From positions 74,826 to 138,825 of the IMG/VR virus record IMGVR_UViG_3300025162_000019: a stretch of DNA of 64,000 bases; one strand, 5' to 3'. The first letter of the stretch is position 1; every line of letters starts with the position of its first letter. A program made the translations under genes and the position numbers. The notes under the pieces are model-generated. The model made no database searches and was not told the origin of the DNA. It saw only the letters and a program-made list of their open reading frames with translations. This document shows, in pieces, positions 11,942-64,000 of this stretch. This DNA comes from a virus. Lineage: Duplodnaviria; Heunggongvirae; Uroviricota; Caudoviricetes.

Positions 11942-11942
11942 T

Positions 11943-14051: not shown

Positions 14052-14082
14052 ATTCTTCTATAACTATATATTTTTTATTTTT

Positions 14083-15304: not shown

Positions 15305-15306
15305 TT

Positions 15307-23425: not shown

Positions 23426-23456
23426 CAAGTAACTGGTTATGTGGTATAAATATAGG

Positions 23457-41206: not shown

Positions 41207-41261
41207 GATTGACTTTTCATCATGGTTGTGGTATAATAAATTAAAAAGTAAGAAAAGGAAT

Positions 41262-48555: not shown

Positions 48556-49392
48556 ATGAAAATTCTTGCATTAGGCCCATATATGGGAAATTGGGAAAAT
48601 GAAATTTGTAATTTTTATCCATACGCTAAATGGTTATGTGAAATTGTAAAATATGATGATGTTTTTATAGCTACACATTCTAACAGAGTATTTTTATATG
48701 ATTGGATTAAAAAGAATAATCACTTAAATGTTTTTGAGAATCTAAGTCGTGACGAATTTTCACAGGTTGGTGCGACGCATAAGAATATATCACAGGAAGA
48801 TTATACACTTATTTATAAGAAGTTTAAAAATGATGTATCAAGGTATTCAGTAAGTGGCAAGAAAAATATAGAGGTGTATAACATTCAATATACACCTCAA
48901 AATGTATTTTATCCATATCATAATAAGATATATGCTAAAATACAAATTGATTATGAAGAAAATAAAGAAAATATTGTTTATATACCAGACATTAAAGAAG
49001 ATAAGAAAATTATAAACGAAATATATAATCAATTAATAAAGAAGTATAAAAATGTTGTTGTAGTAGGTGATATGAAAACGCATTTAAGCGACCATAATAT
49101 TATATTAAAACATAGTGATTATTTTCAAAATGGCTATAAGTATATATTAAAAGAAATGATGAATGCTAAGGCTGTAATATGCCCATTGGGCCATTGGTCT
49201 TTATTATGTAATATTCAAAAGATACCAGTATTTTCTTGGGGTATTCCTTCTGGCTTATATGGTGGATCAATGTATAACTTAGAGAATAGAAACTGTAAAA
49301 ACTATAGATATGATATAAGTATGACGCCAGAAAAATTAGTTAGAATGTTTGATTTTTTCTTGGAAAATATAAAAATTAGGAAGGAGAAGTAA
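48556..49392 (+). CDS. hypothetical protein, possibly GT9-like glycosyltransferase
   Basis: C-terminal AKAVICPLGHWSLLCNIQKIPVFSWG resembles heptosyltransferase motif; weak. Confidence 0.3.
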   Translation: MKILALGPYMGNWENEICNFYPYAKWLCEIVKYDDVFIATHSNRVFLYDWIKKNNHLNVFENLSRDEFSQVGATHKNISQEDYTLIYKKFKNDVSRYSVSGKKNIEVYNIQYTPQNVFYPYHNKIYAKIQIDYEENKENIVYIPDIKEDKKIINEIYNQLIKKYKNVVVVGDMKTHLSDHNIILKHSDYFQNGYKYILKEMMNAKAVICPLGHWSLLCNIQKIPVFSWGIPSGLYGGSMYNLENRNCKNYRYDISMTPEKLVRMFDFFLENIKIRKEK

Positions 49393-49393
49393 G

Positions 49394-49654
49394 ATGCCTT
49401 TATTTGATTACGAATGCCCAAAATGTGGTAATAAGTGTGAACTGTTTATTAATTTAAGTGAAATAAATGATGTTGTTCTATGTGCTGAATGTGATGTTGA
49501 AATGACACAAAAATTTCCTGATACGATGTCGTTTGAACTTAAATATAATCCTAAGAAAGATAAAGTTGGTTGGTCTTACGATGGTTATAGTACAACACAA
49601 AGATATAGAGAAACTGATAAAATGGCAAAACATAATATATTTCCTATGAGTTAA
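49394..49654 (+). CDS. FmdB-family zinc-ribbon protein
   Basis: YECPKCG...CAEC. Confidence 0.5.
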   Translation: MPLFDYECPKCGNKCELFINLSEINDVVLCAECDVEMTQKFPDTMSFELKYNPKKDKVGWSYDGYSTTQRYRETDKMAKHNIFPMS

Positions 49655-49664
49655 AGAGGTAACA

Positions 49665-50636
49665 ATGAAAAAAATATTTGAAAGTGCCACATTTTCAACT
49701 GGAATGGAAGGTGCTATAACTTTAGCTTGGAATGGTGAAGATTTAGGTAAGTATGAAAAGCAGAAAGAACTTGCCATAAAAACTGTAGAATACTTAAAAG
49801 ATAAGGGCTTAAAGGGGAAAGCTGAACATTTAACTAGTTATTACCCAACAACAGATTATTGGAAAGATATATTGAAAGGCTCTAAAACATCATCATCAAA
49901 AACAGATATAAAAATAGGAGATGCTAGAATTTCATTAAAAGTCGGCTCAGCTCAACTTATGTCTGGTGGTAAACAAGAATCAAACGCAACATTATATGCT
50001 GTAGCAAGTAAATTAAAACACAAAGAAGCTGTAGATAAAATATCAAATATTATCAATAATTTTGTTAAAGGTATAGCTGAAGATACAATAGGAAAAGCTA
50101 GAAAATATGATGACCTAATTAAAAAAGGTGATGACATACATAAACAGTTAAACGAAGCATTGACAAATTTATTTAATAGTGATAATAGTTTTAAGATTGC
50201 TTTTTTAAAAGAATCTGTAAGTGGTCAAATAAAATTTGGTGAAGATAATATTGCTTGTGCTAATTATATATTATCACTTAAAGATAAACAACCATATTTA
50301 AAGTATATTAATGATTCAACTATAAAAAGTATAGCTAGTCGTGTTAGAATAAATACATCCTATAAAACTGATAGTATGAGAGGAAAAAATATAGGTAAAT
50401 ATAGTTATAGATCAGTTTTAGGAATTTTAGTGGATAAAATTACTGAAGAACTTGAACATACAGACCTTAACACATTAAATGAAAGTATGTTAAGTGATTT
50501 CTGGCAGAAGATAAAAGACTTTGTTAGTGACCTAATGGGTAAAATAAAAGAATACCTTTCAACAAGTATAGAAAATGTTTTTAGTTTTTTAGAAATAGAG
50601 CCTGTTGTTGAAATGGAGGGAGAGATTGAACTATGA
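49665..50636 (+). CDS. hypothetical protein
   Basis: 323 aa. Confidence 0.4.
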   Translation: MKKIFESATFSTGMEGAITLAWNGEDLGKYEKQKELAIKTVEYLKDKGLKGKAEHLTSYYPTTDYWKDILKGSKTSSSKTDIKIGDARISLKVGSAQLMSGGKQESNATLYAVASKLKHKEAVDKISNIINNFVKGIAEDTIGKARKYDDLIKKGDDIHKQLNEALTNLFNSDNSFKIAFLKESVSGQIKFGEDNIACANYILSLKDKQPYLKYINDSTIKSIASRVRINTSYKTDSMRGKNIGKYSYRSVLGILVDKITEELEHTDLNTLNESMLSDFWQKIKDFVSDLMGKIKEYLSTSIENVFSFLEIEPVVEMEGEIEL

Positions 50637-51277
50637 GTATAAATGTTTTAGTACCGATGGACAATGAAAAAATTATAGCAAAAATAGAAAGTCAGTTAGA
50701 AACGGATGATACTTTAACAGTATTTAATTTACCTGCATATCCTGCTAGAATTATAGATTCCCTTTTCTCAAAAACAAAAAATGATAGAATATTATTTATT
50801 AGCCCATTTACTTTTGTTATTGCTGATAATTTTATAGAAATGTTTAGAAAAAATGATTTACCTTTTAATATGTATTTAAGAACATGGGGTGAAGAAATAA
50901 ATGATTTTGTAAAAGGATCAAAAGGAGATTTCAAATTTAGTGATTCCATATGCTTTTATAAAAATAAATATCTGAGAAATTTAACCGATTATTCTAATAC
51001 TTTATGTTTTGATGATATAATGAAATTATTTATCAAAACATCACATCTAAATATTTATGTACCTGATACAAGAATAGAAACTTGTAAGGTGATTGAAAAA
51101 CTTGAAGAGCTTGATGCGATTGATGAAACTAAAGAAATAGTACCTGAAGTGGTAGTTGATGAACCTGTACTTAAAAAATCTACGGCTAAAGCTAAAAAGG
51201 CATCTGTTAAAACAACTGAAAAGAAAACTGAAGAAGTTAATGTAAAGGAGTGCAATTCTAATAGCTGGATGGACTAA
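50633..51277 (+). CDS. hypothetical protein with Lys-rich tail
   Basis: 214 aa. Confidence 0.4.
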   Translation: MSINVLVPMDNEKIIAKIESQLETDDTLTVFNLPAYPARIIDSLFSKTKNDRILFISPFTFVIADNFIEMFRKNDLPFNMYLRTWGEEINDFVKGSKGDFKFSDSICFYKNKYLRNLTDYSNTLCFDDIMKLFIKTSHLNIYVPDTRIETCKVIEKLEELDAIDETKEIVPEVVVDEPVLKKSTAKAKKASVKTTEKKTEEVNVKECNSNSWMD

Positions 51278-52005
51278 TGAAAATTGTTATTTTTTCTTGT
51301 GGTTATAACTGTTCTAAATATGTTAAAAATCATTTAGATTCTGTAAAAAATCAGACATTTAAAGATTATGTACACATTCTCGTAGATGATTGCTCTGTTG
51401 ATGGGACATTGGATATAATTTGTCAAAATAGAGACAATAATATGTTTATTCATCGTACAGGTAAAAATCAAAAATGGATTCAAAATGCAATAAATTTTCT
51501 TTCAGTATCAGATGATGATATTGTTATTATATTAGACATGGATGATTGGCTTGCTGATATTCATGTCTTTGAAGATATTATAAAAGCATATGAAGAAACA
51601 AATTGCTGGATGACATACAGTAAATTCTATTATACATCCAAAAAATCAACATCAGATTGGATACCACCATATTCAGAACAAACGCTAAAAGATTCATCAT
51701 TTAGAAAAAGTATATGGTCATTCACGCATCTCAGAACCTTTAAAGGATTTCTCTGGAATAAACTCAACAAAGAAGATTTAAAAGATAAAAATGGTAAATA
51801 TTTCAAGTATGCTTATGACCAAGCTATATTCTTTCCTATGCTTGAAATGTCATCACCAGATAAAATCCAAAGAATAGATAAAGTTCAGTATATATACAAT
51901 GATAACAATCCTTTACAAGTAGAAAAGTTGAATCGTAAAGAGCAAGAAGAAATAGCAAAATGTGTAAGATCAAAAAAACCATATCAAAGGCTTATAAATG
52001 GATAG
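51277..52005 (+). CDS. GT2-family (GT-A) glycosyltransferase
   Basis: IVIFSCGYNC..VKNQTF..VHILVDDCSVDGT; DxD-like DMDD. Confidence 0.6.
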   Translation: MKIVIFSCGYNCSKYVKNHLDSVKNQTFKDYVHILVDDCSVDGTLDIICQNRDNNMFIHRTGKNQKWIQNAINFLSVSDDDIVIILDMDDWLADIHVFEDIIKAYEETNCWMTYSKFYYTSKKSTSDWIPPYSEQTLKDSSFRKSIWSFTHLRTFKGFLWNKLNKEDLKDKNGKYFKYAYDQAIFFPMLEMSSPDKIQRIDKVQYIYNDNNPLQVEKLNRKEQEEIAKCVRSKKPYQRLING

Positions 52006-53494
52006 AAGAATATTAATAATAAGTAATCTTTATAACTGTGAAAAGTATGTAGAAAAGCATATAAAAAGTATATTAAAACAATCATATAGTAACTGGAATC
52101 TAATTTTAATAAATGATGGCTGTACTGATAATACTGATAGAGCTGTAAGAAACTATATGCCAAAACTTCCTAAAATAGAATATGTTGTTAATGAATCTCA
52201 AAAGGGAATGGCATTAAATGTCTATAAAAATGTACTTAAATATACATCTGATGAAAATACTGATGATATAATTTATATAATGAATGGTGCTGATTGGCTA
52301 CCGCATGAGAATGTTTTCAAGCAACTAAATGAACTATATGAAAAGGGTTGTTTAGCAACTTGTGGCGGATCAATGCTAAGCAATAAAAAAAGATATTTCT
52401 ATAACTATTTCTATGACGATATTATTAATAAAATGTATAGAAAAGATGGAGAATTTTATAGTCCTGTAACATTTAACGCAATGTTATTTTATAAATTAAA
52501 AACTTATGACTTATTTAAAAATGATTATTCATCAATAGGTTGTTACAAAGAAGCTATTGAATATTCCATAATTGATATGGTGCCTAAGGAATCAATATCA
52601 TTTATTAAAAATGAACCAATATATGTTTTTAATGTTGAATATAATAAAAGAGAAAAATGCGATAAAGTTGCAAGAGAATATTATAAATCTCTATCATTTA
52701 ATGAAATAAATGTAGAACATGATAATATAGATGAAGAAGAAATACCTGAAGGTGATAATGTGCATTTTATAGTATTCGCATCAGGGTATAATTGTGAAAA
52801 ATGGATTAATAAACATATTGATAGTATATTGAGCCAGACATATAAAAATTTTACATATATTATTGTTGATGATCAAACAACAGATGGTACATATAAGAAG
52901 ATTTGCGAATATAAAGATGAAAGAATAAAAGTATATAGACCACTAGTAAATCAAAAATGGTGTAAAAATGCGTGGGATTATTTAAGGCCAAATATAGTAA
53001 ATGATGAAGATGTTGTTGTCGTTGTCGATTTAGATGACTGGCTTTCGCATGATACGGTACTAGAAAAATTAAATAAAATATACAAAAAAGAACATTGTTG
53101 GGTAACTTATGGTAGCCATACAAGAGTTAGTACTGAAAGAGCTAGAACTAATCCTGTATCACAAATAATTTTAGATAACAAATTATACAGAAACACAGAT
53201 TGGGAATACTCACATTTAAAAACATTTAAGGCATTTTTATATTTAAATATAGAAGAAAAAGATTTTAAATCATCTGATGGTGAATGGTTATTACACACAT
53301 ATGATAAAGCATTAATGTTTCCTATACTTGAAATGTCACCAGCGGATAAGATAAAGCATATAAAAGAGATATTGTATGTTTATAATAATGAAAATCCGCT
53401 AAATGTAGGTAAAGTAAACAGAAAAGATGGTAAAAAAACATATGGTGTATGGTTAAGAGAGCAGCCAGTATATCCAGAACTAGTGAGGGAATAA
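51998..53494 (+). CDS. tandem double GT2-family glycosyltransferase
   Basis: two copies of the GT-A N-terminal signature (ILIISNLYNCEKY...ILINDGCTDNTD and HFIVFASGYNCEKW...IIVDDQTTDGT). Confidence 0.6.
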   Translation: MDRRILIISNLYNCEKYVEKHIKSILKQSYSNWNLILINDGCTDNTDRAVRNYMPKLPKIEYVVNESQKGMALNVYKNVLKYTSDENTDDIIYIMNGADWLPHENVFKQLNELYEKGCLATCGGSMLSNKKRYFYNYFYDDIINKMYRKDGEFYSPVTFNAMLFYKLKTYDLFKNDYSSIGCYKEAIEYSIIDMVPKESISFIKNEPIYVFNVEYNKREKCDKVAREYYKSLSFNEINVEHDNIDEEEIPEGDNVHFIVFASGYNCEKWINKHIDSILSQTYKNFTYIIVDDQTTDGTYKKICEYKDERIKVYRPLVNQKWCKNAWDYLRPNIVNDEDVVVVVDLDDWLSHDTVLEKLNKIYKKEHCWVTYGSHTRVSTERARTNPVSQIILDNKLYRNTDWEYSHLKTFKAFLYLNIEEKDFKSSDGEWLLHTYDKALMFPILEMSPADKIKHIKEILYVYNNENPLNVGKVNRKDGKKTYGVWLREQPVYPELVRE

Positions 53495-54432
53495 TGAATA
53501 TACTTGTTGATGGTGGCGAAGGTCATGTTTTAACTCAAAGAATAACGCCATATTTAAATAAAATTGGGCATTCTATTGTTAAATATCCCTCTAACTATGA
53601 TATACATTTAGCTTTCGTTAGATTTTCATACAATTCTAATGTGCCTAGAATAGTTAGGATTGATGGTATATATTACGATACAGATATAAATTATAATAAT
53701 AGAAATTCTGGTATAAGTATGTCGCATTCATCAGCAAAAGGTATTATTTATCAAAGTGACTTTTCAAGAATGATGTGCGAAAGATATTTGAGCCCTCGTA
53801 AAAAAGATACTATATATTCTATAATTCATAATGGTATTGATCCAATGTGGTGCGGGGAATCAGTAGAACATAAAGCATTTAATATAGTTGTATCTGCAAA
53901 ATGGAGGCGTCATAAAAGATTATTAGAAACAATTAATATATTTTTAAAATTTAATAAAATCATACCAAATTCTAATCTTCTTATATTGGGTAAATTACAT
54001 GACAATAAAGAAATTAAACATTCCAACATAAAATACTTTGGTCATTTAGATTATATTCAAATGAAAGATGTATTCAAATATTCTGATGTATCTATGCACT
54101 TATCTAAAAAAGATTCATGCCCAAATACCGTTGTTGAAACAATTGGCGCTGGAATACCAACAATAACAACAAATTCATGTGGCGGTGCAGTTGAAATGTG
54201 TAAACTAACTGAAGGTTGTATTATTGTAGATGGCGATGGTTCATATTTAGATACTGATCCATGTAGACCATATAGTGATGAATATAATAAACTATCAAAG
54301 GAGGTAGAAGATAATTTAATTGAGGCATTATTAAAAATAGAAAAGGATAAACGACGAGTTATAGTACCAGAACAATTAACAGCTGAATACACAGCAAATA
54401 AATATGTCGAGCTTATAAAAAGTTGTATGTAA
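53494..54432 (+). CDS. GT-B glycosyltransferase (GT4-like)
   Basis: ETIGAGIPTITTNSCGGAVE donor-binding motif region; start overlaps upstream stop (TAATG). Confidence 0.5.
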   Translation: MNILVDGGEGHVLTQRITPYLNKIGHSIVKYPSNYDIHLAFVRFSYNSNVPRIVRIDGIYYDTDINYNNRNSGISMSHSSAKGIIYQSDFSRMMCERYLSPRKKDTIYSIIHNGIDPMWCGESVEHKAFNIVVSAKWRRHKRLLETINIFLKFNKIIPNSNLLILGKLHDNKEIKHSNIKYFGHLDYIQMKDVFKYSDVSMHLSKKDSCPNTVVETIGAGIPTITTNSCGGAVEMCKLTEGCIIVDGDGSYLDTDPCRPYSDEYNKLSKEVEDNLIEALLKIEKDKRRVIVPEQLTAEYTANKYVELIKSCM

Positions 54433-54440
54433 AAAACATA

Positions 54441-54469
54441 TTGACAATTAACCTCAGATATGTTAGAAT
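54441..54469 (+). promoter_or_regulatory. sigma-70-type promoter
   Basis: TTGACA-N17-TAGAAT with TG. Confidence 0.55.
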
Positions 54470-54491
54470 AATACATTAAAGGAGGTACTTA

Positions 54492-54998
54492 TTGATCTAC
54501 TTCGCATCAGATTACCATTTCAATCACTCGCAAATTATAGATTATTGTAAAAGACCATTTAAAGATGTAGAAGAAATGAACAATACAATAATAGAAAATC
54601 ATAATAGAATCGTTAAAGATGATGATATAGTAGTCTTTTTAGGAGATTTTTGTTTTAAAGATGGTATTGAATACCTAAGTAAAATGAAAGGTCATTTTCA
54701 ACTAATAAAAGGAAATCACGATAGAAGAAATGGTTTACCTTGTTTGTTTAAAAAAGCAATATTCACACAGTACAATTATAAAATAATGGTAGCACATGAT
54801 CCAGACACAGTATTTCCTGGCTTTGATTTATATTTTGTAGGCCATGTTCACGACCATTGGAAGTTTAAAAGAGTTATAAGAGATAAAAAGAAAATGGATA
54901 TGATAAATGTATCAGTAGATGTATGGGATTTTAAGCCAGTATCTATTGATCAACTTGTTAATTTTTATAGAGAATGTAAAACGAATGGGAGAAAATAA
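54492..54998 (+). CDS. metallophosphoesterase (calcineurin-like)
   Basis: DYHFNH, LGDF, GNHD, GHVHDH motifs; TTG start after AAAGGAGG. Confidence 0.6.
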   Translation: MIYFASDYHFNHSQIIDYCKRPFKDVEEMNNTIIENHNRIVKDDDIVVFLGDFCFKDGIEYLSKMKGHFQLIKGNHDRRNGLPCLFKKAIFTQYNYKIMVAHDPDTVFPGFDLYFVGHVHDHWKFKRVIRDKKKMDMINVSVDVWDFKPVSIDQLVNFYRECKTNGRK

Positions 54999-54999
54999 T

Positions 55000-55374
55000 A
55001 TGATAGAAGAAATTGTTGATGATGTAGAAATTGTTTTGGGCACTGTAATTGATTTAAAAGGATTTTCTTTGGGATTTATAAAGAACATTCAAGAGGCATT
55101 AAAAGTCAATTCATCCTTTCAGGATTTCCAAGACGATTTTGATAAGGGAATGTATACGGATGAAATGGAAGCATACCTTAATGACAATACTAGTGAGTTT
55201 AAAGTATGTTATGATGATATAAATGAATCGTTTATATTTTACATTCCCATGAACTCAGAAGATATTGAAGATAAAACTATCAGAGAACTAAAAGAAAAAT
55301 TGATTGGTGATATGGAAATATTTACTTTATTTATATCATATGATGATGTAGATATTTTTGCACTAGAGGATTAA
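55000..55374 (+). CDS. acidic hypothetical protein
   Basis: RBS GGGAGAAAA. Confidence 0.4.
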   Translation: MIEEIVDDVEIVLGTVIDLKGFSLGFIKNIQEALKVNSSFQDFQDDFDKGMYTDEMEAYLNDNTSEFKVCYDDINESFIFYIPMNSEDIEDKTIRELKEKLIGDMEIFTLFISYDDVDIFALED

Positions 55375-55375
55375 C

Positions 55376-56341
55376 ATGGATAGATTTATATGGAAAAATG
55401 GTGAGATTCTACCTGAATATGAAGCAACAGTGAGTATATATGATTCTGCAATGATGCTTGGCGATACAATTTTTACTATGCTCAGAACATTCAATAAAGA
55501 ATTATACCTCATTGATGAACACCTTGAAAGATTATTTGATAACTTAAAATACGTTAGAATGTCTATACCATATGATAAATATGAAATAAAAAATGCACTA
55601 TATGATGTAATGGATGCCAATAAGTTCAATGATGATGATGAACACAGACTGATGATAAACTGCACGCGGGGTTTATTATCACTATATCAAGATGTTGAAC
55701 ACTCTAAAGGCCCTAATGTTATAATTGCCGATTTTCCCTTAAAATGGACGGTAGCAGGAATGGGAAAGCTATTCGATGAAGGTATCAATATGATAACCCC
55801 AAATCAAAGGTCTATCCCTTCTCGTTTGCTTGATGCTAAAGTAAAATGTAGATCAAGATTACATTACCTAATGGCTAATATTGAAGTATCACAATATGCA
55901 GGTGAAAATAACTGGGCATTATTGTTAGACGAAGATGGATTTGTAGCAGAAGGAACCGGTGATAACTTCTTTATTGTTAAAGATAAGATTATATATACAC
56001 CTGAACCTCGTAATATACTTAGAGGTATTACAAGAAAAAGAATAATGAAAATGGCTCATGTAGTCGAAAAAAATATTGATATATATGATGTAATGACTGC
56101 TGATGAAGCGTTTATTTCAGGTACGCCTTTTGTTGTTCTACCAGTAGTATCATTAAATGGTGTTAAAATAGGAACAGGTAAAACAAAAGACTATACAGAG
56201 TTTTGGTATTTATTATCAAAATGGTGCTGCGAATATGGTGTTAATATTAAAGAGCAAATACAAGAATGGGATAAAAAATATGTAGAACTACAATCAAGAA
56301 AAGGTGCTTCACCATATAAATTTAAGGAGAATAAAATATGA
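55376..56341 (+). CDS. class IV (fold type IV) PLP-dependent aminotransferase/lyase
   Basis: FIWKNGEIL...SIYDSAMMLGDTIFTMLRT N-terminal signature; 321 aa. Confidence 0.55.
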   Translation: MDRFIWKNGEILPEYEATVSIYDSAMMLGDTIFTMLRTFNKELYLIDEHLERLFDNLKYVRMSIPYDKYEIKNALYDVMDANKFNDDDEHRLMINCTRGLLSLYQDVEHSKGPNVIIADFPLKWTVAGMGKLFDEGINMITPNQRSIPSRLLDAKVKCRSRLHYLMANIEVSQYAGENNWALLLDEDGFVAEGTGDNFFIVKDKIIYTPEPRNILRGITRKRIMKMAHVVEKNIDIYDVMTADEAFISGTPFVVLPVVSLNGVKIGTGKTKDYTEFWYLLSKWCCEYGVNIKEQIQEWDKKYVELQSRKGASPYKFKENKI

Positions 56342-56997: not shown

Positions 56998-57000
56998 AAT

Positions 57001-57798
57001 ATGCTAAATGGTCTTGGATATACGAATGTAGAATTAAGCTCAGTATGTAATAAAAGTTGCTGGATGTGTGGAAGGCGTAAAAGAGATAAAGAACAACGTG
57101 GCGATGAATATGGATTTATGGAATATGAAACTGCTATAAAAATTGCAAATGAAATACCAGCTGGAACCATGATTCAGTTGCATAATAATGGTGAAGGTCT
57201 TATGCATCCAGAATTTGGTAAGATGTTAAAATTATTTAAACATTGTATAACTAATATTGTATCTAATGGAAAACTTATACTTAAAAAAGCCGATGAAATA
57301 ATTGATCATCTTGATATACTTACAATTTCTATCATACAAGGTGATGATGGTGAAGAACAAATAGATCAATATACTATATTAAAAAAGTTTTTACTATTAA
57401 AAGGTGATAAAAAACCTAATGTTATTTTAAGATTTCTTGGTGATTGTGATGAGAGAACTTATAATGATTTTAACTTACTTCATGTAAATAGAGTTTTACA
57501 TATACCTGATGGAAGTAGAAATTATACTAAAACACCTACCATACCAGAACATGGAGTCTGCACAGACCTCTTAAATCATCTTGCTATTGATCGTCACGGT
57601 GATGTGAGTTGCTGTGTTAGATTTGATCCTAATAGAATGCTTGTATTAGGCAATATAATGTATTCTTCTTTAGATGAATTATGGAATTGCGAAAAAAGAT
57701 TAAGTATGATTAAAAAACACATAGAGGGCAAACGATCAGAAGTGCCGTATTGCGGTAATCAATGCGAGTTCTGGGGCATTGCAACTTCGGGAAAATAA
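57001..57798 (+). CDS. radical SAM enzyme with C-terminal Cys-rich (SPASM/twitch-like) region
   Basis: CNKSCWMC; C-terminal CCVRF...CGNQCEF. Confidence 0.55.
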   Translation: MLNGLGYTNVELSSVCNKSCWMCGRRKRDKEQRGDEYGFMEYETAIKIANEIPAGTMIQLHNNGEGLMHPEFGKMLKLFKHCITNIVSNGKLILKKADEIIDHLDILTISIIQGDDGEEQIDQYTILKKFLLLKGDKKPNVILRFLGDCDERTYNDFNLLHVNRVLHIPDGSRNYTKTPTIPEHGVCTDLLNHLAIDRHGDVSCCVRFDPNRMLVLGNIMYSSLDELWNCEKRLSMIKKHIEGKRSEVPYCGNQCEFWGIATSGK

Positions 57799-58551
57799 AT
57801 GCATTATAAAATGGCAGATTTTGTAAAATTAAAACAAACTGATACAGTATTTTTAATTGGAAGTGGATCATCACTAAATGAAATAACAGAGGATCAATGG
57901 TCTATAATAAATAGTTATGATAATATGGGTGTAAATAATATATTTTATCACCCATTTTTTATACCTAAATCACTTCATTTAGAACTTAAAAAATATGATT
58001 GGGGTATTGCAAAAGAAAGACTTGAAGAAAAATGGGAATTGGGTTGGAAAAATGTAAATTATATTTTCCCAATCGAAAGATATGCATATATATCAGGTGC
58101 TATAGGGCATGAAAAAAAGGCTAAAATTTTTACTTATAGATATGAAAGAAGAGGATTTCATCCTAAAAAACATCCAGATACAAAAATAGATGCAAATTTT
58201 AATCCCGATAAAATTTTATATAAATCATATGATACTAGTGTTTCAACTATTATACAAATGTTATATTTAATGGGGTATAAAAATATAATACTTTGGGGTT
58301 TAGATATGAGAGATAGTAAATATTTTTGGACTGATATGGAACCTGAAGTTAGAGGATTAGTTCATGATTTATGGAACAAACAAAGAGAAGGAAAAGATAA
58401 AAATACACCACATAATGCATCTCATTTACAAGATTATATAACAGATTTTAATGATAAATTTATGAAGCCAAAAAGAAGAGAGATTTTTGTTGGTCATAAA
58501 TCAACATTATTATATCCAAAACTACAATATATTGATATAGATAAATTATAA
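57799..58551 (+). CDS. GT42 (CstII sialyltransferase)-like glycosyltransferase
   Basis: VFLIGSGSSL...; IILWGLDMRDSKYFWTD resembles CstII GNGPSL / SGIDFY blocks. Confidence 0.4.
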   Translation: MHYKMADFVKLKQTDTVFLIGSGSSLNEITEDQWSIINSYDNMGVNNIFYHPFFIPKSLHLELKKYDWGIAKERLEEKWELGWKNVNYIFPIERYAYISGAIGHEKKAKIFTYRYERRGFHPKKHPDTKIDANFNPDKILYKSYDTSVSTIIQMLYLMGYKNIILWGLDMRDSKYFWTDMEPEVRGLVHDLWNKQREGKDKNTPHNASHLQDYITDFNDKFMKPKRREIFVGHKSTLLYPKLQYIDIDKL

Positions 58552-59285
58552 TGCATAATATTACAGAACTTCTTAACTATAAAAAAAGTAATATAGCTGT
58601 AATTTTAGGCAGTGGATCGTCAATAAATGACATAACAGAACAAGAATGGGAAAAATTAAAAACCTTTGATCTTTGGGCATTAAATAACTGGGTTTACCAT
58701 CCTTCAGTAATACCCAATTTTTATCATATAGAAGTTAAACATTATGATGCAGAAATTGTTAAAAGAAGATTGGAAGAAAAATGGGATAAGTATAAAGATG
58801 TTATATATTTAGTGCCTTCTATAAGACAAGATGTAGTAGATGTTATAGGGCATGAAAATGAAGCTAAAATATTTTATTATGAATATATTAAAAGAAATAT
58901 ATATAAAAATAAAATAAATGCTAATTATAATATAAAAATAAAAGGTATTTTTGTAAGATCATATAATACATCATTATCATTATTAATAGATATGTTATAT
59001 AAATTAAAATATAGATATATTATTTTAGCAGGCGTAGATTTATTGGATTCAAGATATTTTTGGACTAATGGCGATCCTAATATATATGGTGAAGTACATC
59101 AACAATGGAATAAAGAAATTAGTGGAGGTAAAATTGATGCCCCTCATAAAACTCACCATATTTCAAATTTCATAATTGATTTTAATAATCAGCATATGAA
59201 ATCTAAAAAAAGAGAAATATTTTTAATAACTAAAAAATCAAAACTTTATCCAGATTTAAATTGTATTAAAATAGAGAATATATGA
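58551..59285 (+). CDS. GT42-like glycosyltransferase, paralogue of 57799-58551
   Basis: AVILGSGSSI...ILAGVDLLDSRYFWTN. Confidence 0.4.
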   Translation: MHNITELLNYKKSNIAVILGSGSSINDITEQEWEKLKTFDLWALNNWVYHPSVIPNFYHIEVKHYDAEIVKRRLEEKWDKYKDVIYLVPSIRQDVVDVIGHENEAKIFYYEYIKRNIYKNKINANYNIKIKGIFVRSYNTSLSLLIDMLYKLKYRYIILAGVDLLDSRYFWTNGDPNIYGEVHQQWNKEISGGKIDAPHKTHHISNFIIDFNNQHMKSKKREIFLITKKSKLYPDLNCIKIENI

Positions 59286-60022
59286 TAGAAAAAAATATAA
59301 CTATATGCCCCTTATGCCATAGTAAAAGTAATAGAGTAGTGTATAATATAAATTTCACAACATTACAATGTAATGATTGTCAATTATATTTTCATAAAAA
59401 TTATTATACAAAAGAAGAATTATTTAGGTTTTATTCTACAAATTATGGTGTTAGTAGAGGAAAAAGAGCAAATATAAAAAATCCTGAAAGAATTTTATTT
59501 AATGAAAGTAAATATGAATTTTTAAAGGAGAGAAATTGTAGATTAAGATTTATGCCTGTTATAGATTCATTTACAGAAAAAAGGAATATACTAGAAATCG
59601 GTGCTGATGCAGGTGGCGCTACAAGATATATGATAAAAAGGGGTCATAATGTAGAAGCTGTAGAATTATTTAAAGATTATGCTGATAAGCTTACAAAAGA
59701 AGGCATTAAAGTTTATAATGATCTATTTGAAAATATTAATTTTAATAAAAAATATGATTTAATTGTTGCATTAGAAGTGATTGAACACTTTTCAGACCCG
59801 TTAAAATGTATAAATAAAATATATAATTTATTAAATACGGATGGTTATTTTATATTTGAAACACCTGTAGCAAAAGATGGTTTAGTTGATTCTGCATCAT
59901 ATAGTATAAGACCTTCGCATTATTGTGTATTTAATTCAACTTCTCTAAGTATATTATTAAAAGATTTTAAAAATTTACCAAAATTTAATGAAGGCAATGA
60001 GGTATATAAAATTAAAAAATGA
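59282..60022 (+). CDS. SAM-dependent methyltransferase with N-terminal zinc ribbon
   Basis: CPLCHS...CNDC; EIGADAGGAT; LIVALEVIEH. Confidence 0.5.
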   Translation: MIEKNITICPLCHSKSNRVVYNINFTTLQCNDCQLYFHKNYYTKEELFRFYSTNYGVSRGKRANIKNPERILFNESKYEFLKERNCRLRFMPVIDSFTEKRNILEIGADAGGATRYMIKRGHNVEAVELFKDYADKLTKEGIKVYNDLFENINFNKKYDLIVALEVIEHFSDPLKCINKIYNLLNTDGYFIFETPVAKDGLVDSASYSIRPSHYCVFNSTSLSILLKDFKNLPKFNEGNEVYKIKK

Positions 60023-60327
60023 GTAGATATGAAGATAAAACGATAGAAAAATTATTAGAAGAACTTGAAATTGAAGGTGAATTTTTAGATAAAGAGTTAG
60101 CAAATATAACAGGAAAAGATAAAATATCACCGGCGGGTGTAGTAAGATCAGTAACAGATGAAGAAAGAAATACGAAAAAAAGATGGATATGCTCAATTTT
60201 AAGAGATATTTATAATCATTCAGATAATGATGATGTAAAAAAATATACAATAGAAGCAGCAATTCAAGCTAAAAAAATGACAAGAAAATTAGCAGAATAT
60301 AAAGCAAAGGAATTAAAAAATGAATAA
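60019..60327 (+). CDS. hypothetical protein
   Basis: 102 aa. Confidence 0.4.
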   Translation: MSRYEDKTIEKLLEELEIEGEFLDKELANITGKDKISPAGVVRSVTDEERNTKKRWICSILRDIYNHSDNDDVKKYTIEAAIQAKKMTRKLAEYKAKELKNE

Positions 60328-60892
60328 TATATGTATGTATGGTAGTTATACTGATTATATACCATTGCTGAAAGAATATAAAGGTGGTTCTTTTTTAGAT
60401 GTAGGTGGTAATAATGGTAAAGCAGAAGCATATGCAGAAGGATTTAAATATTTTGTTTTAGAACTTTCGCAACCAAAGCATCCACATGAAAATACGATTA
60501 TAGGGGATATATGTAATTGCCAAGAAATTAAAGATGATTCCTATGATGTAGTATATTCCAATGATGTATTTGAGCATCTTTTAGAACCTTGGTCAGCGGC
60601 TGAGCACATTATTAGAATATGTAAACCTGGCGGACTAATCATAACAAGTACTGTTTTTTCTTGGAGATTTCATCCTGTTCCTGTAGATACATTTAGATAT
60701 ACGCATCAAGGACTTGAATATCTTTTTACAAGAACTGGTAAGGTACAAAGTTTAATAAGTAAATATGATATAAGAAAGAGAAGGAAAGATTCAAGAGGTA
60801 AAGGTGAATTTGATTTGCCTCCTATTGATGAATTAGGTGGCTGGCGAGAAAATTGGAAAGTACTATATGTTTGTAAGAAAAATAAACAATAG
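60320..60892 (+). CDS. SAM-dependent methyltransferase
   Basis: FLDVGGNNG; YDVVYSNDVFEHL; KPGGLII. Confidence 0.5.
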   Translation: MNNICMYGSYTDYIPLLKEYKGGSFLDVGGNNGKAEAYAEGFKYFVLELSQPKHPHENTIIGDICNCQEIKDDSYDVVYSNDVFEHLLEPWSAAEHIIRICKPGGLIITSTVFSWRFHPVPVDTFRYTHQGLEYLFTRTGKVQSLISKYDIRKRRKDSRGKGEFDLPPIDELGGWRENWKVLYVCKKNKQ

Positions 60893-60901
60893 GAGTAATA
60901 T

Positions 60902-61753
60902 ATGAATAATGTGTTATTAGTTGGCGAAATTGGCTTGAATGGAAATGGGGATTTAGAAATAACCAAAAAACTAATTAATATCTGTCATGCGTTCGGCGTT
61001 GACTATGTTAAATTTCAAAAAAGAACATTAGATAAATGTTATACACAAGAAGAACTTAATAAACCAAGAGAAAGTCCGTGGGGTACAACAACAAGAGAGC
61101 AAAAACAAGGTTTAGAATATAGTAAGGAAGAGTATAATGAAATAGATAAATATTGTAAAATGGTTGGTATAAAATGGTTTGCATCCGTTTGGGATATAGA
61201 ATCTGTAAATTTTATTGAAAGTTATGATGTTCCATTTATAAAGATACCATCAGCATTGATCTCACACATTGAACTACTGAACTCCGTCAAAAGGTCAGGA
61301 ATACCTGTTATCATATCAACTGGTATGAGTGAGTGGGAAGAAATTAAAACAGCTATTTCCATTTTAGGTGATAATCTTAAATATGTTCTACACACAACTT
61401 CAAGTTATCCTACCCCTGTTGATGAAATGAATTTAAATAAGATAACAACATTAAAAGATTCAGCTCCTATTAGTGGTAGCTATAAGATAGGATTTTCAAA
61501 TCATCACCAAGGAACATTCTTTTGCACAGTTGCAGCAGTTTTGGGTGCTGAGATGATAGAATTTCATGTAACTTTAGATAGGGCAATGTATGGGTCTGAT
61601 CAGGCGGCCAGTATTGAGCCAAATGGTATAAGACTTATTGTAGATCACATAAGAGATTTAGATGTTGCAATGGGTGATGGATATTGGAAAAGGAAAATAG
61701 AACCATCAGAAATACCAGTAATAAAAAAATTAAAAAGAAATCTTGACTTTTAA
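60902..61753 (+). CDS. NeuB-family nonulosonic acid (sialic/pseudaminic/legionaminic) synthase, TIM-barrel domain only
   Basis: LLVGEIGLNGNGDL...DYVKFQK...; IGFSNHHQG...EFHVTLD...GSDQAASIEP; lacks C-terminal AFP-like domain. Confidence 0.6.
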   Translation: MNNVLLVGEIGLNGNGDLEITKKLINICHAFGVDYVKFQKRTLDKCYTQEELNKPRESPWGTTTREQKQGLEYSKEEYNEIDKYCKMVGIKWFASVWDIESVNFIESYDVPFIKIPSALISHIELLNSVKRSGIPVIISTGMSEWEEIKTAISILGDNLKYVLHTTSSYPTPVDEMNLNKITTLKDSAPISGSYKIGFSNHHQGTFFCTVAAVLGAEMIEFHVTLDRAMYGSDQAASIEPNGIRLIVDHIRDLDVAMGDGYWKRKIEPSEIPVIKKLKRNLDF

Positions 61754-61772
61754 ATAAAAATAGAGTATACTG
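61744..61772 (+). promoter_or_regulatory. promoter for downstream homing-endonuclease-like gene
   Basis: TTGACT-N17-TATACT. Confidence 0.4.
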
Positions 61773-61789
61773 AGGTTAAATAATAAAGA

Positions 61790-62701: not shown

Positions 62702-62924
62702 TGATATTATTATAGACAAAAAGAAAGTATATAAAGAAAGATTAAATGAAAAAATACAAAATATTTTAGATAGTTTTAAATTGGAGCCTGATGATTCTAA
62801 AACTAGAAGTATTTTATATAATACACTACAACTTTTTTTAGAAGAGGAAAAAAAGAACAAACGAATACAAAATTATTTATTAAAAATAACTGAAAAAAAT
62901 ATAAAAATTGAGGTTAATGTCTAA
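62694..62924 (+). CDS. hypothetical protein
   Basis: RBS GGAGG; ATG 62694. Confidence 0.4.
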   Translation: MFDDIIIDKKKVYKERLNEKIQNILDSFKLEPDDSKTRSILYNTLQLFLEEEKKNKRIQNYLLKITEKNIKIEVNV

Positions 62925-63160
62925 TGTATGATGATCTGATAATGACTAAAAGACCTCTTGTTGGCGAAGAATACAATAGAGTATCAAAGGAATTACACCA
63001 AGGATGCTATGAATTATTGATAGAGCATTTAGGCGAAGATAAAAAGATTATACAAAATTTATTAGAAGGGTATATCAATTCAATATTAGAAGATTATGAT
63101 ACAAAATTTATTATTGAATTTGATATAGAAAAGTATAAAATAAACATAATTTTTAAGTAG
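62924..63160 (+). CDS. hypothetical protein
   Basis: 78 aa. Confidence 0.4.
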   Translation: MYDDLIMTKRPLVGEEYNRVSKELHQGCYELLIEHLGEDKKIIQNLLEGYINSILEDYDTKFIIEFDIEKYKINIIFK

Positions 63161-63174
63161 AAAGGAGAGGTAAA

Positions 63175-63360
63175 ATGTTTGAAGATATTTTTGGGGATTT
63201 TGACAGACAAGTAGAAAGAATAACTAACATTGATGATGGCGCTGGGCAGGTTCAAGCAGTTGATGATGTTTGGAAAACTGATGTTTGGTCTACTGCTGAT
63301 GAAGTTAATCCAGATTATGTTTGGGGTAGAGTTAATCCAGATTATGTCTGGCGAAGTTGA
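63175..63360 (+). CDS. small hypothetical protein with VNPDYVW x2
   Basis: RBS AAAGGAGAGG. Confidence 0.35.
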   Translation: MFEDIFGDFDRQVERITNIDDGAGQVQAVDDVWKTDVWSTADEVNPDYVWGRVNPDYVWRS

Positions 63361-64000
63361 TCTAAAATAGGTTCAATAAAATCACGATGTATCAGCTTTT
63401 TAGTTGAATAAAATTCTTCATTACTACCAGCTGATATATCGTTTTTTGTGCTCATTGCAATAAAAGAAGTACTAAAGCATAAACCGCCAATATAACCATG
63501 CTTATACAGTTTCAAAACCATTGCCCAGTCCGACATTCGATGTATAGTTTCATCAGTTACAAATCCACCAACTTCTTCTACTATTTTAGAATCATACATA
63601 CTGTTGGATGATATATAATTACCTTTTAATAGTTTCTTTATATCATATTCCATTGGAGGAAATTTTATATTTACATGGCCAGAATATTCAAATGGGCAAT
63701 ACGAAAATGCTAGATGTGATTTTTTGATTACAGAATGGAGTTTATCAAGCATATTTCTACCCAAAATTATATCCCTATCAATGATCTGAATATAGTTGGG
63801 TAGAAAATTGAATTGTTTTTTAAATTGATCTAAACCTGCTTGAACATTGGTTGCGTGTTTACCTGAACCTTCATATGAAATCCAAGTGAAATCTATATCG
63901 TTCTTCTTTATAGATGTTTTGGTTTCACTACTAATCTTATGCCCTGTAAGTAAAGGCGTAAGCACCAGAAGTTCTTTTGATTTACTTTCCTTTAAAACAT
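63342..64000 (-). CDS. GT2-family glycosyltransferase (N-terminus beyond window end)
   Basis: reading frame open to position 64000; DWAMVLKLYKHGY GT-A C-terminal motif; convergent with plus-strand cluster. Confidence 0.5.
   Translation of the reverse strand, partial: VLKESKSKELLVLTPLLTGHKISSETKTSIKKNDIDFTWISYEGSGKHATNVQAGLDQFKKQFNFLPNYIQIIDRDIILGRNMLDKLHSVIKKSHLAFSYCPFEYSGHVNIKFPPMEYDIKKLLKGNYISSNSMYDSKIVEEVGGFVTDETIHRMSDWAMVLKLYKHGYIGGLCFSTSFIAMSTKNDISAGSNEEFYSTKKLIHRDFIEPILDQLRQT

Follow-up and report, generated by a model that had tools for sequence, protein, structure and literature searches.

A probable glycosylation island native to a large T4-like phage, with a predicted pathway for a modified sialic-acid-like sugar

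In the window, a 64,000-nt stretch of viral DNA, lies a conserved block of genes whose most likely role is to make a modified sialic-acid-like sugar and to transfer it. We think it probable that positions 51277-61753, together with the convergent gene at 63342-64007, make up an operon-like glycosylation island that is native to its phage, a large T4-like one of oxygen-poor freshwater; the phage contigs came from lake metagenomes. A sialic-acid-like biosynthesis and transfer pathway had been proposed in an earlier note, and profile and fold searches supported it. Enzyme families were assigned by these searches and the chemistry was inferred from them; enzyme activity, sugar and glycoconjugate are all computational predictions.

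Core enzymes and the predicted pathway

The biosynthetic genes were as follows.
55376..56341, plus strand: fold-type IV (class IV) PLP aminotransferase (PF01063)
56338..56997, plus strand: NeuA-type CMP-ulosonic-acid synthetase, a cytidylyltransferase (PF02348)
57001..57798, plus strand: BtrN-like radical-SAM enzyme, 265 aa, with one SPASM/twitch-type auxiliary cluster (PF13186)
59282..60022, plus strand: class I SAM methyltransferase MT1 (PF13489, 64.9 bits)
60320..60892, plus strand: class I SAM methyltransferase MT2 (PF13489, 46.3 bits; PF08241, 38.3 bits)
60902..61753, plus strand: SAF-less NeuB-family synthase, predicted to join PEP and an aldose into a 3-deoxy-2-ulosonic acid (PF03102)

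The synthase matched Pfam NeuB above the gathering score (221.5 bits, E 1.5e-65) and contained the motifs quoted for it earlier, GEIGLNGNGDL at residue 8, SNHHQG at residue 199 and GSDQAASIEP at residue 231. Its best PDB match was 6ncs, a NeuB of 290 aa, and it had more than 8000 homologues; short NeuB was found on at least 235 IMG/VR viral contigs. The match to TIGR03569 (210.6 bits, under the cut-off of 399.65) spanned model positions 2-271 of 329, and because it stops there the synthase is predicted to lack the SAF domain. In the proposed synthetase, IPARGGSVGIPNKN begins at residue 8 as the earlier note had read it, and CTP_transf_3 matched above the gathering score with 62 bits. PDB matches were to PpNeuA (9t4z, 1.5e-22) and mouse CMP-Neu5Ac synthetase (1qwj, 1.5e-14), and more weakly to KdsB (at least 4e-6), while the top NCBIfam model, PseF, stayed under its cut-off (62 vs 206). 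Thus the search for unrelated families returned the NeuB family for one enzyme and NeuA-type matches ahead of KdsB for the other, and the pathway was not refuted. A point against our preferred explanation is that both scores fall far short of the NCBIfam equivalog cut-offs (210 vs 400 and 62 vs 206) and therefore specify neither the substrate nor how many carbons the product has.

The radical-SAM assignment also held, with SPASM above the gathering score (33 bits), Radical_SAM below threshold (19 bits) and PDB matches to the BtrN entries 4m7s and 4m7t only, which covered the N- and C-terminal regions. Cysteines C16/C20/C23 and C187/C205/C251/C255 were invariant, and these seven are consistent with a single radical-SAM cluster and a single auxiliary one. 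GTDB genomes held 106 relatives of the enzyme. Two points count against our preferred explanation: the BtrN similarity is weak (each E 5.9e-7), and the top NCBIfam matches were peptide or cofactor maturases. The class IV PLP enzyme was confirmed by Aminotran_4 above the gathering score (145.7 bits); its top PDB matches were archaeal BCATs (3e-45), and (R)-amine transaminases matched too (about 1e-25). Copies 50-58% identical stood beside NeuB, CMP-synthetase or radical-SAM genes in 11 viral and 19 cellular loci, and the window protein was 55% identical to the cellular cassette copies. Judged by sequence, the aminotransferase is a member of a dedicated, cassette-specific subfamily that travels with the BtrN-like enzyme, which bears out and sharpens the earlier suggestion of non-standard chemistry, made because the aminotransferase is of class IV.

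In the predicted pathway, the synthase would join PEP to a host-supplied aldose to give a 3-deoxy-2-ulosonic sugar, which the cytidylyltransferase would convert to a CMP-sugar. The radical-SAM enzyme would pair with the aminotransferase, most likely oxidising a sugar hydroxyl to a ketone without the use of oxygen and then transaminating it to install an amino group. Against this, such an aminotransferase and radical-SAM pair can also deoxygenate, as in DesI/DesII. The two methyltransferases, both confirmed by Methyltransf_23/11 matches above the gathering score, would then add methyl groups.

Transferases and the likely acceptor

Transfer of the sugar and assembly of the glycan were assigned to the following genes.
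51277..52005, plus strand: GT2 with one GT-A domain, 242 aa (PF00535, 60.9 bits, E 1.9e-16)
51998..53494, plus strand: double GT2 with two GT-A domains, 498 aa (PF00535 in two stretches, 114 bits)
53494..54432, plus strand: GT4-type GT-B, 312 aa by the gene call (PF00534, 39 bits; PF13692)
57799..58551, plus strand: X1, of Maf/GT42/GT29-like fold and predicted to act as a sialyl-type CMP-ulosonic-acid transferase
58551..59285, plus strand: X2, paralogue of X1 (42% identical, E 2e-67)
63342..64000, minus strand: Y221, GT-A (GT2-like), convergent with the island and cut at the window end; the full gene encodes 221 aa

X1 and X2 had been read as GT42-like paralogues. The paralogy and the sialyltransferase-type fold stood, but GT42 membership was rejected, as the pair belongs to no curated family and is structurally nearest to Maf, the flagellin O-nonulosonic-acid transferase that was the top match of X1; X2 matched PF01973 with E 0.031. 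Relatives of X1/X2 were fused to GT2 or TPR domains, and homologues occurred in 12 viral loci. Four GT2 domains in three genes and one GT4 were counted, as claimed before; Glycos_transf_2 for 51277 and 51998 and Glycos_transf_1 for the GT4 gene scored above the gathering threshold. The product of 51277 is a paralogue of that of 51998 (36% identity), and the latter matched Glyco_tranf_2_2 over residues 267-362 and EpsE/TuaG-like NCBIfam models in two stretches. For the GT4 gene the longest ORF begins at 53449 and the gene call at 53494, and homologues 50-51% identical were present in four syntenic viral loci (L007, L008, L015, L016). X1/X2 would transfer the CMP-sugar, and the GT2 and GT4 domains would build the remainder of the oligosaccharide.

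A free small molecule was also considered, in which the core would make a CMP-activated keto-acid metabolite, whether aminoglycoside-like or of another kind and perhaps with 8 or 10 carbons, that serves as an antibiotic, signal or defence inhibitor, with the nearby glycosyltransferases unrelated. BtrN, the closest solved relative of the radical-SAM enzyme, belongs to an aminoglycoside pathway, the NeuB and cytidylyltransferase scores lie under all equivalog thresholds, and cellular cassettes also hold B12-dependent radical-SAM, VOC, SDR and GmhA-like SIS genes, which typify natural-product tailoring. However, CMP activation is a hallmark of donor sugars meant for transfer, X1/X2 lie directly 3' of the radical-SAM gene (spacing 0 and -1 nt) and co-occur with the core in the 12 viral loci, and five glycosyltransferase domains are translationally coupled within the block, so we give this reading little credence.

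All island proteins are predicted to be soluble: the only TM-like hydrophobic window among them was a borderline one in the aminotransferase (maximum KD 1.62 vs the 1.6 cut-off). The island has no gene for a lipid carrier, flippase, polymerase or ligase. We therefore infer cytoplasmic glycan assembly on a soluble acceptor, which is most likely a protein of the phage virion or another phage or host protein; a host glycan intermediate is a less likely substrate for extension. Host surface glycans would still be compatible with a lack of TM segments, because peripheral soluble GT2/GT4 enzymes often act on membrane-bound lipid-linked acceptors.

Remodelling of the host surface during infection would place the CMP-sugar on a glycan of the envelope (that of LPS/LOS, capsule, S-layer or flagellin), through the host lipid carrier and export machinery, and block superinfection, mask receptors or delay recognition. 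GT2 enzymes of the EpsE/TuaG/PglI/WcaA type and GT4 enzymes usually use undecaprenyl-linked acceptors, and GT42 enzymes use lipo-oligosaccharide. Early/middle-type replication genes surround the island, as expected of a host-takeover function; the neighbours are replication and recombination genes with no structural genes, which counts against our preferred explanation. Large T4-like cyanophages also carry "cell wall/LPS" islands with KdsA/KdsB and 13 glycosyltransferases (PMC12801897). Against this, the island has no initiating phosphoglycosyltransferase or oligosaccharyltransferase, and a lytic T4-like phage has little time to profit from a surface change. X1/X2-type transferases were essentially limited to viral contigs and cellular cassettes employ other transferases, which suggests a phage-specific acceptor. 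We regard surface remodelling as unlikely, though it deserves consideration.

Hypermodification of phage DNA, by an ulosonic-acid-capped glycan on hydroxymethylated or hydroxylated pyrimidines, would extend T4-type DNA glycosylation and block restriction and CRISPR. The island lies between the primase and the UvsX/gp46/gp47 block, where the T4 DNA glucosyltransferase genes also map, all of its enzymes are predicted to be soluble, and a weak dNK-like gene sits inside the module of a 142-kb relative (L088). Phage glycosyltransferases are described that place diverse, multi-sugar glycans on DNA (bioRxiv 10.1101/2023.12.21.572611; PMC13326640), but CMP-sugars and nonulosonic acids were unmentioned in the DNA-glycan literature searched. 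The window and 10 kb on each side of it yielded no dCMP/dUMP hydroxymethylase, dCTPase, 5mYOX/TET or other base-modifying enzyme, a Dam-type methyltransferase being the sole DNA-modifying gene seen. Sialyltransferase-fold enzymes are not known to act on DNA, and the cassette is common in cellular genomes, where it would be useless for phage DNA. We consider this reading improbable and prefer a protein acceptor.

Island borders and residence in the phage

The remaining genes of the region, and two outlying ones, were the following.
24332..25465, plus strand: probable GT-B glycosyltransferase, outlying (phrog_7162, E 4.6e-35)
36549..37367, plus strand: FkbM-family methyltransferase, outlying, a possible glycan modifier (PF05050, 56.5 bits)
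48556..51277, plus strand: four co-oriented ORFs, 48556-49392, 49394-49654 (zinc ribbon), 49665-50636 and 50633-51277
54492..54998, plus strand: calcineurin-like phosphoesterase (phrog_547, E 7e-33; Pfam Metallophos below threshold)
55000..55374, plus strand: small acidic ORF (124 aa as called), also a predicted gene on contig L002
60019..60327, plus strand: 102-aa ORF with a weak homologue in L007/L008
61790..62701, plus strand: homing-endonuclease-like gene with CapR (39 bits), treble-clef zinc finger and REase domains

A glycan stretch of about 15 kb had been described, and it stands from 51277 onward. The first 2.7 kb (48556-51277) and the GT9-like call found no support, because searches of Pfam, PHROG and PDB returned nothing for 48556, 49665 and 50633, nor for 55000 and 60019, even at E = 10; 49394-49654 matched Zn_ribbon_8. 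These four ORFs are translationally coupled to the GT2 genes (gaps -4 to +10 nt) and had no homologues among 160 related loci, and they are probably outside the pathway. The phosphoesterase kept its family and lost its pathway role: none of the related loci had a homologue close to NeuB or to the radical-SAM gene, and it is probably a generic phage gene. It is preceded by the only sizeable gap of the island (59 nt), which contains the best sigma-70-like match, overall not significant. The gene at 61790-62701, one of ten paralogues in the window and broken in a contig variant (L001), is a mobile passenger inserted 3' of NeuB with no part in the pathway. Upstream, the FkbM call was upheld (TIGR01444, 88 bits, over the cut-off); among the GT-B-like ORFs, 24332 gave a weak GT-B signal (Glyco_trans_1_4 below threshold with 24 bits), and 37377 bears only a slight resemblance to glycosyltransferases (phrog_2170, 2e-7). 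The T4-like replication setting was borne out by gp32, RNase H, NrdG/NrdD and a gp61-like primase in the window, followed past its end by UvsX, a gp46-like SMC_N protein and a gp47-like metallophosphoesterase.

By its sequence context, the island is to be read as native to the phage and no recent host insertion, because its GC (0.24-0.30) matches that of the flanks (0.27-0.31), its genes are tightly packed (gaps -8 to +10 nt besides the 59-nt one), and L088 preserves island synteny and neighbours at about 55% protein identity. That synteny implies long residence under purifying selection; in L088 the island has the matching position, adjoining a minus-strand GT-A/TROVE/RecA block. Variants were present on many viral contigs, and in a 219-kb relative NeuB is accompanied by genes for DegT, SDR and methyltransferase, with a T4-type portal adjacent. 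A captured host island or assembly chimera with no phage-specific role would accord with the cellular homologues of the core proteins (46-57% identical) and with contig L086, where phage is joined to Bacteroidota-like DNA of GC 0.43 just past the island, which means that chimeras occur among these assemblies. But GC and GC skew are uniform from island through flanks, megablast matched no known phage, and the island is identical on many independent contigs (NeuB on 17; Y221 on 23-39, from several samples), so that such an origin is extremely improbable and the pathway was again not refuted.

A recurrent cassette and comparison with known systems

NeuB, CMP-synthetase, radical-SAM enzyme and aminotransferase form a recurrent cassette, which is new here. 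Of 82 mostly viral loci surveyed around short NeuB, 47 held the CMP-synthetase, 20 the radical-SAM enzyme, 12 X1/X2 and 11 the class IV aminotransferase. The cellular survey was seeded with the radical-SAM enzyme alone (80 GTDB loci, neighbours within 10 kb), and NeuB was found in 73/80 and the CMP-synthetase in 60/80. An aminotransferase was present in 51 of these 80 loci (class IV 19, class III 30, DegT 12), and classes III and IV co-occurred in just one, a pattern resembling non-orthologous displacement, by which one enzyme takes over from another as the needed transaminase. A tblastn search with MT1 found similar methyltransferases at 10 viral and 22 cellular loci; the ORF cluster matching MT1 covered 49/80 cellular loci, and its representative matched 28/80 (E 1e-8, at least 50% coverage).

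Our literature search found no link between radical SAM and nonulosonic acids, and the radical-SAM and aminotransferase route to a sialic-acid-like sugar is most likely undescribed; it is also widespread among anaerobic microbes. The Neu, Pse and Leg routes have precursor-forming enzymes, whereas the phage island is without them (no NeuC, PseB/C/H/G or LegB/C/H/G in the window), a further point against our preferred explanation. Amino sugars are usually made through a 4,6-dehydratase/DegT pair, which the proposed phage route would bypass.

Phage setting of the glycan island

Profile searches of the window identified a gp32-like protein at 29450, a T4-type RNase H at 42151, NrdG and NrdD of anaerobic ribonucleotide reductase at 43340 and 44548, and a gp61-like primase at 47094, which was only ~25% identical to T4-like primases. 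Identical proteins were found on dozens of contigs, the longest of 197 kb, and from the sample names we take these contigs to come from oxygen-stratified lake metagenomes. Past the window end, two such contigs (L086 1-10833 and L087) carried a TROVE/Ro60 homologue with a vWA domain, UvsX and a gp46-like SMC protein, followed by a phage metallopeptidase, a generic NDP-sugar 4,6-dehydratase/epimerase and, last, a gp47-like phosphoesterase. These replication genes inside and beyond the window agree with the T4-like setting described in the earlier note and show that the window comes from a large T4-like phage. The dehydratase/epimerase, ~12 kb outside the window, might provide a precursor for the glycan pathway.

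Further along L086 (10848-20666), phage DNA of GC 0.30 is joined to DNA of GC 0.43 that carries SprB-like, GH2, ABC-transporter, YceI and M14 peptidase genes. Given this GC jump, the join is most likely an assembly chimera and not a junction with host DNA, and we rejected the contig as a clue to the host.

Recent insertion of the glycan gene block (~48556-64000) from host DNA had been named in the earlier note as one of the findings that would undo its reading. The GC content and GC skew were continuous across the island and both flanks, and the island genes overlapped or abutted (spacing -8 to +10 nt) except at one 59-nt gap, with 55376-61753 forming a compact, intron-free unit of ~6.4 kb. 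A 142 kb relative (L088), whose proteins were ~50-60% identical to those of the window, had the same layout of aminotransferase, GT2, GT4, radical-SAM, X and NeuB genes and a convergent GT-A gene, and then TROVE and RecA. In a 219 kb relative, NeuB (60% identity) and DegT, SDR and methyltransferase genes adjoined a T4-type portal. A recent host origin therefore does not fit the composition, the packing or the synteny of the relatives.

When 50,697 phage records were searched by megablast, the island had no DNA match. By tblastn, the matches to NeuB were confined to two uncultured viruses and a single bacterial contig, the cytidylyltransferase matched only that same bacterial contig, and X1 had no match. 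These searches yielded no cultured model phage.

NeuB-type synthase and CMP-sugar synthetase

Profile searches placed 60902 with the NeuB synthases and 56338 with the NeuA-type enzymes and not in unrelated families, so both calls of the earlier note stood. The 283-aa product of 60902 matched the NeuB domain (PF03102) with 221.5 bits (cut-off 22.1), its residues 24-260 covering model positions 1-239 of 241. Eight residues, including positions of the KFQK, SxH and ExH motifs (K37, Q39, K40, N200, H201, E220, H222 and D233), were invariant in 20 short NeuBs and align with 6ncs. We take them to be the catalytic and metal-binding positions, having mapped them to N. meningitidis NeuB numbering in part with the study cited below for the SAF domain.

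The enzyme is short: TIGR03569 was matched over positions 2-271 of 329 only, no SAF (antifreeze-like) domain was matched in Pfam or NCBIfam, and the scores did not reach the equivalog cut-offs of NeuB_NnaB (210.6 against 399.65) or PseI (149.1 against 340.25). This family of ~275-aa proteins gave >8000 matches at E <= 1e-10, with relatives on at least 235 IMG/VR viral contigs. The literature records NeuBs of this SAF-less kind only among uncharacterised 'environmental' sequences, and in N. meningitidis NeuB the SAF domain is the source of a substrate-binding Arg that contacts ManNAc (PMC8208679). Loss of this domain suggests that the substrate may be other than an N-acetyl-hexosamine. The corresponding module of L088 includes a mannose-6-phosphate-isomerase-like cupin protein.

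The product of 56338 matched CTP_transf_3 (PF02348) with 62.1 bits (cut-off 22.6), which is below the PseF equivalog cut-off (62 against 205.7). Its PDB matches were NeuA types (1.5e-22 and 1.5e-14) and KdsB (4e-6 or weaker), and by this sequence comparison the cytidylyltransferase resembles CMP-sialate synthetases of the NeuA type more than it resembles KdsB. Among the window ORFs scanned there was no precursor enzyme for Neu5Ac, Pse or Leg (NeuC; PseB/LegB, DegT-type PseC/LegC, PseH/LegH and PseG/LegG).

Radical-SAM enzyme, aminotransferase and a recurrent cassette

The radical-SAM call for 57001 was borne out by matches to the SPASM domain (33 bits, cut-off 21.5) and, below threshold, to radical SAM (19 bits). 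The cysteines C16/C20/C23 (CX3CX2C) and C187/C205/C251/C255 were invariant in 13 sequences, which fits a radical-SAM cluster and one auxiliary 4Fe-4S cluster, and the sole solved (PDB) relative was BtrN. Likewise, 55376 proved to be a class IV PLP enzyme, matching Aminotran_4 (PF01063) with 145.7 bits (cut-off 28.5) and reaching no BCAT, DAAT or PabC equivalog cut-off. Its product was 55% identical to copies in cellular cassettes, far above the value expected of a generic BCAT; the enzyme is therefore specific to the pathway and does not stem from a stray gene of amino-acid metabolism.

Linkage was counted as genes within 10 kb in 82 mostly viral loci seeded by short NeuB. For reciprocal linkage the radical-SAM alignment alone was the seed, which recovered 106 relatives in GTDB genomes, and 80 GTDB loci were counted.

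Table. Linkage of island gene families (around short NeuB; around the radical-SAM enzyme)
Short NeuB: seed in 82 loci; 73/80
CMP-synthetase: 47/82; 60/80
Radical-SAM enzyme: 20/82; seed in 80 loci
X1/X2: 12/82; 1/80
Class IV aminotransferase: 11/82; 19/80
GT4: 7/82; 1/80
Minus-strand GT-A gene (63342-64000): 7/82; 0/80

Where a cellular locus had the class IV aminotransferase, its gene usually lay directly upstream of the radical-SAM gene. Clustering of neighbouring ORFs revealed a class III aminotransferase in 30 further cellular loci, the two classes occurring together in one locus only. Altogether 51 of the 80 had an aminotransferase of some kind. The carriers were mostly anaerobes and included Omnitrophota, Lentisphaerota, Scalindua and other Planctomycetota, Desulfobacter curvatus DSM 3379, a Desulfovibrio isolate, Saccharibacteria, Woesearchaeota, Dehalococcoidia and Elusimicrobiota.

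The cellular cassettes (L090-L169) often add a B12-binding radical-SAM enzyme (34/80), a VOC/glyoxalase-fold protein (36/80), an SDR (cluster in 20 loci; its representative matches 17) and a GmhA-like SIS protein (cluster in 19 loci; representative 18). These additions hint at C-methylated, possibly heptose-derived (>9-carbon) ulosonic acids.

Predicted sialyltransferase-fold enzymes X1 and X2

The paralogues X1 (57799-58551) and X2 (58551-59285) were assigned by structure prediction alone, which gave the modified GT-A (Rossmann-like) fold of the GT42/GT29/Maf transferases of CMP-nonulosonic acids. Sequence searches of Pfam, NCBIfam, PHROG and PDB returned nothing usable: there was no CST-I (GT42) match, the only Pfam match at E <= 10 was to Maf/MptE-like PF01973 (15.7 and 14.5 bits, cut-off 34.6; E 0.014-0.031), and PDB sequences gave none. 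Thus, of the earlier description as GT42/CstII-like, the predicted fold type held and GT42 membership by sequence did not.

The X proteins form a separate, largely viral family of ~1255 clusters at 50% identity. One pattern scan of GTDB genomes found no cellular homologue, and a single pattern may limit sensitivity. A single 'cellular' locus, L090, had an X homologue. Its contig of 179 kb, which binning assigned to the Asgard archaeon 'Ca. Borrarchaeum weybense', has the phage-type order X2, GT4, GT2, CMP-synthetase, radical-SAM and NeuB (5990-11616), and may thus be phage DNA placed in the wrong bin.

Remaining genes of the island

All sequence motifs quoted in the earlier note were found, and most of its other calls were recovered. 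For GT2 (PF00535), GT-A domains that carry a DxD motif scored above the gathering threshold, with one domain in 51277 (60.9 bits) and two in 51998 (114 bits); GT4 was found at 53494 (39 bits), and the SAM methyltransferases 59282 and 60320 were class I (64.9 and 46.3 bits). All profile and PDB searches came back empty for 48556, 49665, 50633, 55000 and 60019. A glycan function for 48556-51277, and with it the full 15 kb extent of the island, found no backing, and the GT9-like call for 48556-49392 was unsupported rather than disproved, with no Pfam, PHROG or PDB match even at E = 10.

The phosphoesterase 54492, previously counted with the pathway, belongs to a generic phage family and was never beside the cassette in related loci, and for these reasons we rejected it as a Neu/Kdn-9-P phosphatase. 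A scan for sigma-70-like promoters and terminators gave 144 sites against 137 expected, not above shuffled sequence and uninformative in this AT-rich DNA. The region's best sigma-70-like match (54441-54469, plus strand; 11/12 positions and an extended -10 TG) lies in the island's only 59-nt gap, upstream of the phosphoesterase gene.

Proposed pathway and acceptor

In the proposed route NeuB would join PEP to an aldose from the host, and the product would be converted to a CMP-sugar by the NeuA-like enzyme. The radical-SAM/aminotransferase pair is predicted to oxidise a secondary alcohol of the sugar to a ketone and then transaminate it to introduce an amino group, for which genetic coupling to aminotransferases gives indirect support. 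Oxidation followed by transamination is the logic of KdnB/KdnA in Kdo8N synthesis and of BtrN with its aminotransferase, on which this step is modelled. The main alternative is that the pair carries out a DesI/DesII-like deoxygenation. The two methyltransferases would tailor the sugar, and X1 and X2 would probably place it at the end of a glycan that the GT2 and GT4 enzymes assemble, rather than acting directly on protein.

A Kyte-Doolittle scan of the ORFs of 48556-64000 found no TM-like segment, the sole borderline case being one window of the aminotransferase, and no Pfam match in that interval belonged to the initiating phosphoglycosyltransferase, flippase/ABC exporter, polymerase or ligase families. 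This lack of lipid-carrier machinery, together with an X family nearly confined to viral contigs, tilts the balance towards a phage-specific, soluble acceptor, most plausibly protein. Remodelling of the host surface is a serious rival, since Kdo and 'LPS' gene sets occur in large T4-like cyanophages (PMC12801897). Glycosylation of DNA is a further possible target, but the DNA-glycan literature that we found involves no CMP-sugar, and the 84 kb covered here (window and 10 kb on each side) of a roughly 197 kb genome contained no hydroxymethylase or dioxygenase, and no T4-type (gp42-like) synthesis of hydroxymethyl- or hydroxy-pyrimidines together with DNA glycosyltransferases.

Other features of the window

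Ten homing-endonuclease-like paralogues (50-62% aa identity, two partial; phrog_559), with CapR, treble-clef zinc-finger and MTES_1575 REase domains, span 42 kb, an unusually dense expansion of one mobile-gene family. They are located at:
20383-21264
22434-22949
23439-24332
28512-29399
33591-34469
39253-39480
40328-41206
41226-42143
43847-44542
61790-62701, within the glycan island, inserted after NeuB and broken in one contig variant

Further features were:
600-1193, further SAM methyltransferase
1868-2746, Dam-type DNA adenine methyltransferase
13262-15573, minus strand, tandem small paralogous ORFs of ~75-100 aa
17356-18762 and 18767-20041, plus strand, two adjacent paralogues (34% identity) with weak amidoligase-like matches to phrog_33777 and phrog_7469
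26268-26624, plus strand, DUF488-N3a gene
27909-28487, plus strand, S-adenosylmethionine lyase family gene (45.7 bits)
30827-31128, plus strand, group I intron (Rfam 60.8 bits, E 5.7e-13, full-length model)

Immediately downstream of the gp32-like gene, the intron shares sequence with the 3' end of an ORF for an HNH endonuclease (30466-31104). Window positions 1-12000, which also encode a DUF932 protein, have a GC content of 0.34-0.41 against 0.24-0.33 elsewhere in the window, and 12-16 kb is the sole minus-strand block of the window, where GC skew goes negative. The SAM lyase deserves mention beside three SAM-dependent island enzymes and NrdG in the same phage.

Discussion

Glycan islands of big phages and bacterial nonulosonic-acid pathways are already known. 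The new element is a phage with a complete set for synthesis, activation and transfer of a sialic-acid-like sugar, together with a radical-SAM/aminotransferase tailoring module. Within the incomplete coverage of the literature searched, we found no reports of phage-encoded NeuB/NeuA pathways and no full-text papers linking radical SAM with nonulosonic acids, and work on nonulosonic acid and phage consisted only of receptor papers and prophage tailoring enzymes.

We tentatively propose, as a possibility that we would not yet bet on, an undescribed nonulosonic branch in which the product of a SAF-less NeuB is tailored without oxygen by an aminotransferase of class IV or III and a radical-SAM enzyme like BtrN. 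It would be widespread in anaerobic Bacteria, Archaea and their viruses, with the island as a compact, portable version, and large T4-like phages with a phage-specific sialyltransferase-fold family would attach a novel sialic-acid-like sugar, bearing amino and methyl substituents, as a cap to virion proteins (or DNA) of their own. Sialic-acid-like sugars govern recognition at cell and virus surfaces. If the proposal is true, phages encode the whole route and do not borrow host glycans, which means a self-made cap for a bacterial virus; the radical-SAM/aminotransferase pairing would be a new oxygen-independent tailoring of nonulosonic acids, and the pathway would be a source of new enzymes for the production of rare CMP-sugars and of a new transferase family.

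Like the bacterial Neu5Ac, pseudaminic and legionaminic pathways, the island has a NeuB-family synthase and a NeuA-type cytidylyltransferase beside transferases and methyltransferases. Unlike them, its NeuB is without SAF, scores fall far under the NeuB, PseI and PseF cut-offs, precursor enzymes are absent, and BtrN-like radical-SAM and class IV aminotransferase enzymes replace the dehydratase/DegT chemistry. X1 and X2 share with Maf (PF01973) and GT42 CstI/CstII the N-terminal G-S-G-S-S-L/I-N and central hhhGhD motifs and an adjoining CMP-sugar pathway, but they are 250-aa bare catalytic domains without Maf's extra domains and form a separate family. The 57001 enzyme resembles BtrN (butirosin 2-deoxy-scyllo-inosamine dehydrogenase) in length (265 aa against 269-270 aa in PDB chains), in its cysteine pattern (CX3CX2C and four more) and in its coupling to an aminotransferase. 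It differs in that the similarity is just E 6e-7, the partner is of fold-type IV or class III and not DegT-type, and the predicted substrate is an ulosonic acid or its precursor and not an inosamine.

Among phages, a close parallel is with large T4-like cyanophages such as S-SCSM2R, which encodes KdsA, KdsB, 13 glycosyltransferases, a radical-SAM enzyme and an AHBA_syn aminotransferase (PMC12801897). These phages share with the island many glycosyltransferases, an ulosonic synthase and CMP-synthetase pair, sugar-nucleotide modifiers and a radical-SAM/aminotransferase pair, but their pair is the 8-carbon Kdo pair KdsA/KdsB, from another synthase family, and not NeuB/NeuA; sialyltransferase-fold enzymes are not reported for them, and they have no DNA similarity to the island. 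Mycobacteriophages decorate capsids and tail tubes by phage-encoded glycosyltransferases (Freeman et al. 2023, cited in PMC12619734), a precedent for modification of virion proteins; they encode transferases only and no sugar pathway, whereas the island phage encodes synthesis, activation and transfer. [quoted passage not shown]
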